This document shows, piece after piece, positions 12,001 through 15,000 of a stretch of DNA of 64,000 bases. The stretch comes from Escherichia coli (GTDB lineage Bacteria; Pseudomonadota; Gammaproteobacteria; Enterobacterales; Enterobacteriaceae), in the NCBI RefSeq assembly GCF_003018255.1, contig NZ_CP027440.1; one strand, written 5' to 3'. Position numbers: made by a program. The stretch's first letter is position 1. The number at the start of each line of letters is the position of its first letter.

Positions 12001-15000
12001 CAGCCGCGGTCAGGCCCACCGTGCCGGACTGTGGGTGATAAAGACCGAACTGCTGGAAACGCAGACGGTGGATTTCACGCTCGGGTCTCAGGGGCTGCGG
12101 CACACACCCGGTGACATCATTGAAATCTGTGATAACGACTATGCCGGGACCCTGACCGGCGGACGCATCCTGTCCATCGATGCCGCCAGCCGCACACTGA
12201 CGCTGGACCGTGAGGTGACACTGCCGGAGACAGGGACATCGACGGTGAACCTGATTAACGGCAGCGGTAAGCCGGTGCGCGTGGACATCACTGCACACCC
12301 CGCCCCGGACCGGATACAGGTCAGCGTCCTGCCTGATGGCGTGGCAACATACGGTGTGTGGGGACTCTCCCTGCCGTCACTGCGTCGTCGCCTGTTCCGC
12401 TGTGTTTCCATCCGGGAAAACACGGACGGCACCTTTGCCATCACGGCAGTGCAGCACGTACCGGAAAAAGAAGCCATTGTGGATAACGGAGCCCGCTTTG
12501 AGCCGATGTCCGGCTCACTGAACAGCGTCATCCCGCCGGCAGTGCAGCACCTTACGGTGGAGGTGAGTGCCTCAGACGGCCAGTATCTGGCGCTGGCGAA
12601 ATGGGACACGCCGCGGGTGGTGAAGGGCGTGCGCTTCAGTCTGCGCCTGACCAGCGGAAACGGTGAAAACAGCCGCCTGGTGACCAGCGCCATCACGGCG
12701 GACACGGAGCACCGTTTCAGTGGCCTGCCGCTCGGGGAATACACCCTGACGGTCAGGGCGATAAACAGCTACGGCCAGCAGGGCGAACCTGCCACCACCA
12801 CATTCCGGATTAATGCACCGGCGGCACCGGCCAGCATTGAACTGACGCCGGGCTATTTTCAGATAACGGTGGTCCCGCATCCTGCGGTGTATGACCCGAC
12901 GGTACAGTATGAATTCTGGTTCTCAGAAAAACGCATCACGGACACGGCACAGGTGGAAACCTCTGCCCGTTATCTGGGTACCGGCAGCCAGTGGAGCGTC
13001 TCCGGCCCGCACATTAAGCCGGGGAAGGATTTCTGGTTTTATGTGCGCAGCGTCAACCTGGTGGGGAAATCTGCGTTTGTGGAGGCCAGCGGGCAGGCCA
13101 GCAATGATGGTGAAGGGTATCTGGAAATTTTCCGTGGGCTGATAGATGAGGCGCTGCTGGGGAAGGCACTGAAAGAGCGTATTGATGCGTCAGCCCTGCG
13201 TACTGAGGTCACGCAACTGGAAGAAGACATCCGCCAGCGGCTGGAGACGGATGTTGCGGAAGTGACCCGAAAAATCGGGGAGGCGGAAAACAGCCTCACG
13301 CAGCTGGTTGCGAAAAAGAATGAGGACCAGACGCTGGCCATCGCGCAGGTGAGTCAGCAGGTGGACCGGGTGAGCAGTGAAATCACACAGACAGTCAGCC
13401 AGAGCACGGAGGAAAACGCCAGGCAGATAGCGCAGGTCCGCCAGTACGTGGATGACAAAGGGAGTGAAATCACCTCGACCACGGATAAAAAGCTGGAAGA
13501 CCAGAGCGCCACCATACAGCAGATACAGCAGGTCCAGTCAGACACGAATGATGAGCTGGCAGCGCTGTACATGCTGAAGGTGCAGAAAACGAAAAACGGC
13601 ATTCCGTATGTTGCCGGTATTGGTGCGGGGATTGAGGATGCTGATGGCCAGACGCTGAGCAATATTCTGCTGCAGGCGGACCGTATCGCGATGATTACCC
13701 CGGAGAACGGCAACACCACGCCGCTGTTTGTGGCGCAGGGGAATCAGCTGTTCATGAACGACGTGTTCCTGAAGCGACTGTTTGCAGTGAGCATCACCTC
13801 GTCCGGCAATCCCCCGACGTTCTCCCTGACGCCGGAGGGCAGGCTGACGGCCCGCAATGCGGACATCAGCGGACATATCAGTGCGAACTCGGGCACGCTG
13901 AATAATGTCGTGATAGCGGAGAACTGCACGATAAATGGCACGCTGAAAGCGGAGAACATTATTGGTGATCTGGTGAAATGTGCCGGGGTGGCTTTTCCGG
14001 TGGATGGTAGTTACCTTGCGAACGGTACACGAACGCTGACGGTGTATGACGATCACAGCTTTGACCGGCAGATTATAATCCCGCCGATAATCTATGTCGG
14101 GTCAAAACAGGAATCCCGCACCAGTAATGACATCTGGACAGAGTGCTTCCTGCATGTTGATCAGAACGGACGCCGGATTTATTCAGGCAGGTCAGTGGAA
14201 GAGCCGGGAATTTTCAGCGGGATCATCGATATGCCAGCTGGCGGTGGTCATATCACCCTGAGTTTTACCGTGAGCTCACGGCGTCAGAATAACAGTTGGG
14301 GCAGTTCACGAATCAGTAACCTTCAGGCGATAGTGGTGAAGAAAAACAGCGCGGGGATCAGCATCCGCTGAACATCGCGCCCCGGGATTGCCGGAAGGAG
14401 ACAAAAACCGTACAGTATGCGCGGGTGCCTTTGGCTGATGGCCGGAGGGAACACCTGAAGGCCGGATGTGAAAAGGCCCCGGACAAAACATTCATGTTTA
14501 ACCCGAGGCCTGACCATTCATCCTAAGCAAGTGAAAGGTTAGCGCCTCTCCGTAAAAGGAGCAAGCGTTATGTCGCAAAAACCGTTAAAAACCACCGTGA
14601 TTTGTATCACGGTAGTGCTCATTATCTGGATCACCCACAGTTCACTGTGCGAGTTCCGGTTCCGGATAGCGGGCGCGGAGATTGCGGCGTTCTTACAGTG
14701 TAAGCGGTAAGAAACCGTGGCGGGGGAGTGTACCTTCCCCGCCGACCGGTTGCTGAGGGTGATCAGCCGGATGGCACCTTTTTAACATCAATAAATCACA
14801 AATTTTACCGCAGGCCGGGAAACCGGTCCTGCGGTTTTTTTATGGAGGAAATCCATGGCAGTCAGAATATCGGGTGTGCTGAAGGACGGGGCCGGTAAGC
14901 CGGTACCGGGATGCACGATAGAGCTGAAAGCGCGCCGCACAACGGAGACGGTGATTGTCACCACGGTGGCGTATGGTCAGCCGGGGGAAATCGGCAGTTA

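Follow-up and report, generated by a model that had tools for sequence, protein, structure and literature searches.

The stretch of DNA analysed here, called the window below, comprises 64,000 nucleotides (nt) of an Escherichia coli genome (RefSeq assembly GCF_003018255.1, contig NZ_CP027440.1), and the element of interest is gene J of a lambda-type prophage, whose product, the tip attachment protein or central tail fibre, has a predicted helical stalk about three times as long as its counterpart in phage lambda. The open reading frame (ORF) spans 10634-14371 (+), and initiation at the GTG codon at 10685, with a purine-rich AGGAGAGGGGG stretch upstream of it, gives a protein of 1228 amino acids (aa). 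A gpJ of the same 1228 aa is found at the equivalent position in the RefSeq annotation of a 99.2%-identical locus in E. coli strain 00-3076. Lambda J has 1132 aa (from NC_001416), so the window protein is the longer one, as had been noticed in an earlier inspection of the window made without database searches (the sequence-only reading).

Six J-family Pfam domains score above cut-off (PF24801, PF13550, PF24421, PF24489, PF09327, and PF12421), and together they cover J completely except for residues ~817-943. The hub carries PF24801 and PF13550, and J 1-836 aligns to lambda 1-838 with E = 0 (phmmer). The hub is followed by two consecutive fibronectin type III/immunoglobulin-like domains (FNIII/Ig), matched by PF24421 (J 609-712) and PF24489, and further downstream by the beta-prism tail-tip fibre domain (PF09327) and the Ig-like C-terminal domain (PF12421). 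The top Foldseek matches of the J model are the lambda central fibre structures 8xcj and 8xck. The gene order tape measure, M, L, K, I, J, side fibre is present both among the ORFs of the window and in the RefSeq annotation of the 99.2%-identical locus. In every respect that could be tested, window J belongs with the lambda-type J proteins, and by analogy with them it probably forms a trimer at the tail tip and binds an outer-membrane receptor. The genome annotation is unchanged by this analysis, and window J is an ordinary, intact J gene. Its parts and neighbours are listed in Table 1.

Table 1. Features in and around gene J, with positions in the window, strand, and the basis of each assignment
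Feature	Position	Strand	Basis or remark
Gene J, tip attachment protein / central tail fibre, 1228 aa, GTG start	10685-14371	+	ORF, Pfam, lambda colinearity
Second FNIII/Ig domain, FNIII-2 (J 713-810), directly upstream of the helix	12821-13114	+	PF24489 (J 714-816); AlphaFold2 beta-sandwich, pLDDT ~90; 70% identity to lambda
Recombination cassette, the sole stretch strongly divergent from the 1155-aa allele (sister locus L005)	13084-13492	+	blastn and MAFFT; 409 nt here vs ~190 nt
Whole predicted alpha-helical stalk (J 810-962), counterpart of the lambda AHS, ~3x its length	13112-13570	+	AlphaFold2; periodicity 3.63-3.65
101-aa block without lambda counterpart (J 837-937)	13193-13495	+	phmmer and MAFFT vs lambda J
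29-aa repeat 1 (J 837-865)	13193-13279	+	Lag-29 autocorrelation; DNA repeat 13209/13296, 87-nt spacing
29-aa repeat 2 (J 866-894)	13280-13366	+	Lag-29 autocorrelation; DNA repeats 13340/13427 (87 nt) and 13313/13487 (174 nt)
29-aa repeat 3 (J 895-923)	13367-13453	+	Lag-29 autocorrelation; DNA repeats
29-aa repeat 4 (J 924-952), straddling the right cassette edge	13454-13540	+	Autocorrelation; MAFFT
Beta-prism fibre shaft (J 963-1100; lambda CSF)	13571-13984	+	PF09327 (J 944-1071); AlphaFold2 strands from J 959; 67% identity to lambda
C-terminal receptor-binding domain, RBD (J 1101-1228)	13985-14368	+	PF12421
Small second mosaic patch in FNIII-2	12853-12883	+	10 mismatches in 31 nt vs L005
I-J spacer	10445-10685		240 nt
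Terminator-like hairpin in the I-J spacer	10611-10634	+	10 pairs, 7 of them G-C, then a T run
Hok/Gef-family type I toxin ORF, 46 aa	14570-14710	+	RefSeq annotation in the 99.2%-identical locus; Pfam HOK_GEF in the sister locus
Side tail fibre, 552 aa	14855-16513	+	Lambda-type N-terminal domain

A predicted helical stalk built of 29-residue repeats

The extra length of J relative to lambda lies in one place. A phmmer search against the PDB aligned J 1-836 to lambda J 1-838 and J 937-1227 to lambda 838-1131, and a MAFFT alignment with lambda J returned the excess as a single, gap-free insertion of 101 aa at the lambda 838/839 junction. This position is in the middle of the segment termed AHS, within two or three residues of its internal 840/841 boundary. 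In lambda the AHS is a three-helix bundle (residues 809-861) between the second FNIII domain and the beta-prism shaft (CSF), and residues 809-840 stay helical while 841-861 become beta strands upon LamB binding (PMC11101478). Both ends of the window stalk are homologous to the lambda AHS by MAFFT (J 811-836 and J 938-962). The sequence-only reading had placed the added length in one charged and polar helical segment upstream of the fibre tip, and the alignments agree with it; its interval of 12900-13700 and the peptide it picked out, starting at residue 828 (nt 13166), bracket the inserted block correctly.

Structure was predicted with AlphaFold2 from monomers only. The single-sequence run gave one continuous helix over J 810-962 (~153 residues, compared with ~53 for the equivalent helix of lambda), with a predicted local distance difference test score (pLDDT) above 90 over ~100 residues. 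With a multiple sequence alignment (MSA) of 50 family members, the model comprised the FNIII-2 sandwich, helices at J 809-822, 824-833, and 836-932 (the last with a pLDDT of 84-92), and strands from J 959. The pLDDT fell below 50 over J 929-949, a drop seen with the MSA only. A sequence search of the PDB with the coil alone matched no fibre and found no similarity to the pyocin coil. Its only match was apolipoprotein A-IV (E = 0.05-0.4), which was taken as the likeness of one periodic amphipathic helix to another and not as homology.

The block without lambda counterpart and the residues that follow it form four diverged repeats of 29 residues in tandem. BLOSUM autocorrelation gave z = 7.2 at lag 29 and z = 4.65 at lag 58, values reached by none of 2000 shuffles, and at the DNA level the repeats are weak and spaced by 87 and 174 nt. 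The C-terminal half of repeat 4 aligns to the lambda switching segment 841-861, and past repeat 4 there is a partial unit in common with lambda. Hydrophobic residues recur with a peak period of 3.63-3.65 residues, and the periods 29/8 and 11/3 were each reached by 0 of 2000 shuffles. The canonical heptad period of 3.5 is absent from the stalk (power 0.01, reached by 1891 of 2000 shuffles). The period departs from the heptad because a 29-residue repeat corresponds to 11+11+7 residues, or eight helical turns, and with eight turns to the repeat the bundle should therefore be almost unsupercoiled. The hydrophobic register is kept across all repeats. The sequence-only reading had called the segment coiled-coil-like, a description that the predicted 153-residue helix and the strong 3.63-residue hydrophobic period uphold.

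Cassette exchange, length classes, and spread

The nearest relatives of window J are the 1155-aa J proteins of E. coli prophages and of Stx phage 1720a-02, here represented by the protein P0131 and the sister locus L005. Against the DNA of L005 there are mostly 0-4 mismatches per 100 nt outside the stalk and 33-87 inside it, with sharp edges at ~13084 and ~13492. At the protein level P0131 is identical to window J in the hub and FNIII-1 (100%) and in the last 25 coil residues (100%), and is 94% identical in FNIII-2, 99% in the beta-prism, and 98% in the receptor-binding domain (RBD); hub, FNIII-1, CSF, and RBD thus fall at 98-100%. The L005 locus has near-identical DNA outside the cassette and the same neighbours (Hok/Gef, a collagen-like side tail fibre (Stf), and DUF4376), and the two alleles differ in the cassette only, with a stalk of 91 residues in P0131 and L005 vs 164 in the window. 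Relative to the 1155-aa allele, one cassette has thus been replaced by another, for a net addition of 73 codons, and the difference is not a simple insertion. The term "expanded", applied to the segment in the sequence-only reading, holds relative to lambda (+101 aa); relative to the nearest allele, a swapped cassette accounts for a net +73 aa, and the family also has much longer coils, from 262 aa to an estimated 632 aa. Within FNIII-2 lies a small second mosaic patch with near-identical flanks, which suggests a short gene-conversion tract.

Stalk length was measured across the family as the distance between two conserved anchor motifs, GYLxxF where FNIII-2 ends and YVAGIG where the prism begins. 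This distance is 63 aa in the lambda class, 91 aa in the class of 1155-aa proteins annotated "host specificity protein J" (the class with the largest number of cluster representatives and retrieved members, from E. coli and Salmonella), and 164 aa in window J and its 1224-1232-aa relatives. Rare variants in which QQI was gained or lost have 94 and 161 aa. Clustering at 50% identity left 16 representatives in the 63 class, 21 in the 91 class, and one (P0226) in the 164 class; window J and P0117, which also belong to the 164 class, are not counted among these. A few discrete length classes dominate thousands of sequences.

Remote J-like proteins, for which the spacing was anchored by BLAST, have spacings of 117-337 aa and more, with an estimated maximum of 632 aa, and values above ~300 aa may include other domains. 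Among closer relatives, the 538-aa fragment P0227 (63% identical) has a stalk of 262 aa (residues 124-386) made of nine 29-residue units, with near-perfect repetition at 29 and 58 residues and including an exact tandem copy (AEVTKKITASENSITELVAKKSGEQSLAI twice), and its autocorrelation at lag 29 has z = 13.8. These sequences point to a recent unit duplication in P0227, and because its repeats are near-perfect and include an exact tandem copy, the stalk evidently grows by duplication of units. The remote J-like proteins and the J-like protein of phage T1 (PDB 9L9P) have repeats of ~32-33 residues.

The RBD does not follow the stalk. The window RBD is 99.2% identical to that of phage 1720a-02 and at most 49% identical to those of lambda-type phages; to lambda itself it is 39-41% identical. 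This per-region comparison contradicts the idea, put forward in the sequence-only reading, that the long segment precedes a conserved receptor-binding region, and because the RBD is only ~40% identical to that of lambda, the receptor of window J need not be LamB. The long cassette occurs with at least four RBD types: that of the window and 1720a-02, a lambda-like type (P0117, with an RBD 80% identical to that of lambda), that of PhiR40_1, and that of L002/P0128. Conversely, the window RBD type is also found with the 91-residue stalk, and the lambda-like RBD type also with the 63-residue stalk. Stalk length and RBD thus assort independently, and because the cassette combines freely with RBD types, it is not a determinant of receptor specificity. 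The sequence-only reading had proposed that the added segment may alter tail-tip geometry or host range. A change of geometry is plausible (approximately +11 to +15 nm, estimated from the helix rise), but an effect on host range through receptor specificity is not supported, because the same long cassette accompanies at least four RBD types and the same RBD type accompanies coils of both 91 and 164 residues.

DNA specific to the cassette (13140-13485) was found in 724 of 5426 complete E. coli genomes (~13%), in up to five copies per genome and always within a J annotation. The cassette is thus widespread and already annotated as part of gpJ, and since about 13% of complete E. coli genomes carry it, window J is a real but fairly ordinary variant of a known fibre design. 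A tblastn search of the coil against 50,697 phage records matched only PhiR40_1 and PhiR49_2, with the proviso that the low-complexity filter may hide weaker matches. Both are deposited phage genome records (INPHARED) with the host given as ECOR13. Their J proteins (1232 aa) share the long cassette, with 90% identity in the insert, but are 75% identical to window J in the hub and 42% in the RBD. In the comparison with PhiR40_1, dN/dS is 0.21 in the insert, 0.26 in FNIII-2, and 0.18 in the prism, and these ratios indicate purifying selection on the insert.

Reach, fold switching, and other proposed roles for the stalk

We favour the reading (probability roughly 0.6) that the cassette is a rigid spacer that extends the reach of the fibre, and with the same confidence we regard the region as a modular, length-variable alpha-helical stalk set between the tip-closing FNIII-2 domains and the beta-prism shaft that bears the RBD. 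The stalk of ~153 residues consists of a 26-residue lambda-like N-terminal piece, the four 29-residue repeats, and a lambda-like C-terminal piece at the prism, and its helices would associate as a parallel trimer like those of lambda. With a rise of 0.15 nm per residue, the extra 73-101 residues would lengthen the rigid spacer by ~11-15 nm, giving a stalk of ~23 nm in all vs ~8 nm in lambda (~15 nm more than lambda and ~11 nm more than the sister allele), and would move the RBD farther from the tail tube. By analogy with lambda, the FNIII-2 trimer is presumably clamped by the N-terminal end (J 811-836), whereas the prism-side C-terminal end (J 938-962) would be the part that refolds after receptor binding. 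The collar-to-tip distance has been given as ~40 nm before the fibre bends aside (PMC12617516), and a longer stalk would raise it. We speculate that a longer reach could aid passage through a thick O-antigen or capsule layer.

Lambda, the model for this reading (PDB 8IYK, 8XCJ, 8XCK), is colinear with window J over the whole length, with the six Pfam domains in the same order, 76% identity in the hub, 67% in the beta-prism, and a helix bundle between FNIII-2 and the prism. It differs in having 63 vs 164 residues between the anchors (+101 aa in window J), in lacking 29-residue repeats, and in its RBD (~40% identity). Three points weigh against the spacer reading as set out above. When the lambda tip opens, the AHS turns over by ~180 degrees and comes to lie against the prism (PMC11101478); a stalk three times as long is hard to fit to this movement, so the mechanism cannot simply copy that of lambda. 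The oligomeric state and the rigidity assigned to the stalk are carried over from lambda by analogy. Lastly, the MSA is shallow over the insert, which is carried by close relatives only.

Long helical shafts are known from other tails of this type. The F-type pyocin central fibre (PA0641; F7/F2; PDB 25VF) also has a J-like hub, FNIII domains, a long trimeric helical shaft (163-178 residues vs ~153 predicted in window J), and a beta-prism, and the best-scoring stretch between J and the F2 pyocin fibre in the PDB sequence search lies in J 3-696. The differences lie in the coil: there is no sequence similarity between the two, the pyocin shaft is described as heptad-based and carries alternating SxSxxMxxLxS motifs, whereas the window insert lacks the motif and has a 29/8 period, and the pyocin shaft docks side fibres, whereas lambda-type Stf docks on gpV/gpM. 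The J-like tail tip protein of phage T1 (PDB 9L9P chain S, 1172 aa) and remote J-like proteins such as P0326 and P0340 likewise have a stalk of variable tandem helical repeats, but their unit is ~32-33 residues (period 3.55) and not 29 (3.63), several are motif-positive (P0326), and the estimated spacing extends to 632 aa. By this analogy the window stalk is probably akin in function to the coiled-coil shafts in the central fibres of other siphophages and of F-pyocins, and its length is within the range known for them.

The pyocin precedent also suggests an alternative, namely that the extra repeats enlarge a metastable fold-switching element, so that after receptor binding the coil would turn into additional beta-prism layers and provide more energy for tip opening and tape-measure ejection. 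The F-type pyocin central fibre stores energy in its metastable coiled coil of 163-178 residues (PMC12874032; bioRxiv 2026.02.24.707460; both 2026 preprints); He et al. describe the change from coil to beta-prism, with the signature SxSxxMxxLxS in alternating orientation, for the 163-residue coil of the F7 fibre, and 21 of 24 phage fibres were predicted to behave likewise (PMC12874032). In lambda itself the C-terminal part of the AHS (841-861) does turn to beta strands upon LamB binding (PMC11101478). Like the pyocin coil, the window stalk is predicted to be a long helix (>100 residues; ~153 in the model) directly upstream of the beta-prism seed. T, S, V, I, and Q are abundant in repeats 2-4, repeat 4 is paralogous to the inserted repeats and overlaps the lambda switching segment, and the drop in pLDDT over J 929-949 that appears only when the MSA is used would fit a segment of this kind.

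The signature itself, however, is missing from the insert. Motif windows were counted with residue classes taken from the text of PMC12874032, a scan of limited power, and part of the F2 pyocin coil, recovered from the PDB alignment, served as positive control. The control held 6 perfect windows, alternating R/F approximately every 16 residues (as many in 35 of 2000 shuffles), and the remote J-like protein P0326 held 10 (22 of 2000), whereas the window insert held none (shuffle mean 1.3; reached by all 2000) and the whole window stalk held one, at J 942 (1659 of 2000), which falls in the part aligned to the lambda switching segment. The stalk period of 29/8 also differs from that of the F2 shaft, described as heptad-based (bioRxiv 2026.02.24.707460). 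In addition, the insert lies N-terminal to the lambda switching segment, a position that in F7 corresponds to the non-switching "spine" (PMC12874032), and it is helical in both AlphaFold2 runs, with shallow and deeper MSA alike, though these are monomer models with an MSA that is shallow over the insert. An added role as energy store is unsupported because the insert lacks the published F-pyocin motif, and we consider fold switching of the added repeats unlikely, albeit the best of the alternatives. A related proposal, in our view improbable as well, sees in the 29-residue repeats a tunable mechanical element and not a passive spacer: their number would set the stand-off and also how energetically or when the tip opens, perhaps because they refold onto the prism even though the pyocin motif is missing. 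If true, the natural alleles that differ in the cassette alone (91 vs 164 residues, with the same hub, prism, and RBD) would offer a direct test, in a lambda-type phage, of how non-contractile tails transmit and power the receptor-binding signal.

Alternatively, stalk length might vary in an essentially neutral way, as repeats of a low-complexity linker are duplicated, deleted, and recombined, and make no difference to infection. In favour of such drift, one and the same RBD type occurs with stalks of 91 and 164 residues, 63 residues suffice for lambda, there are small slippage variants (161 and 94 residues, with QQI gained or lost), and relatives contain a recent exact duplication of a unit. 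Neutrality is harder to reconcile with the dN/dS of the insert, which at 0.21 is about as low as that of the folded flanks, with the dominance of a few discrete length classes among thousands of sequences, with the maintenance of the hydrophobic register across repeats, and with the persistence of the cassette in 13% of complete genomes and two deposited phage genomes, and we think it improbable. Least likely is that side tail fibres or some other accessory protein dock on the added helix: side fibres of the F2 pyocin do bind the central coiled-coil shaft via their N-terminal domains (bioRxiv 2026.02.24.707460) and a side-fibre gene follows J in the window, but the N-terminal domain of that side fibre is of the lambda type (matched by PF08400 in the sister locus and annotated "prophage tail fiber N-terminal domain" in the locus with 99.2% identity), short- and long-cassette loci share their downstream genes (Hok/Gef, collagen-like Stf, and DUF4376), and the idea was downgraded because the lambda-type Stf N-terminal domain binds gpV/gpM, where in Ur-lambda it forms a collar on the gpV/gpM junction and not on J (PMC12617516).

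A rigid, repeat-built spacer thus remains the reading we prefer. How the receptor signal passes from fibre tip to tail opening in non-contractile phages is only now emerging, from the open and closed lambda structures and the F-pyocin fold switch, and the helical element central to that mechanism is in lambda-type J a discrete, exchangeable, repeat-built cassette of 63-164 residues and beyond, independent of the RBD. The near-isogenic natural alleles are material for testing the effect of stalk length on reach, O-antigen adsorption, and triggering, and the cassette boundaries hint at where engineered phages or tailocins might tolerate a change of length. In the literature searched, the 29-residue repeat architecture, the cassette boundaries, and the independent assortment were not found described; they are refinements and not a new kind of system.

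Surroundings of gene J

Upstream of J, the I-J spacer measures 240 nt, compared with 60 nt in lambda and approximately 690 and 910 nt in L005 and L002, respectively. Within it are a 21-codon ORF (MPRQKTVTQRNYKHNQDFAKM) and the strong terminator-like hairpin listed in Table 1, whose end lies 50 nt before the start of J. L005 also has a second copy of window 10448-10599, diverged to 71% identity.

Between J and the side-fibre gene, at the site occupied by lom in lambda, lies the Hok/Gef-family ORF (MSQKPLKTTVICITVVLIIWITHSSLCEFRFRIAGAEIAAFLQCKR). An Rfam scan of the J-stf spacer (14300-14900) returned no family at threshold, and thus, for example, no Sok antisense RNA. The side tail fibre that follows has a collagen-like Gly-X-Y region of ~190 residues (~134-325), and because the sister locus L005 has a version of 575 aa, the side fibre is also length-variable.

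Past ~17500 the G+C content drops from ~0.58 to 0.35-0.52, and the interval ~17500-52000 looks like chromosomal genes and other islands; potB is next in the related locus. From ~52000 the G+C content rises again, and ORFs on the + strand (52000-64000) are sized like terminase, portal, and head genes, which suggests the start of the late region of a second prophage, with the window ending before its own J.

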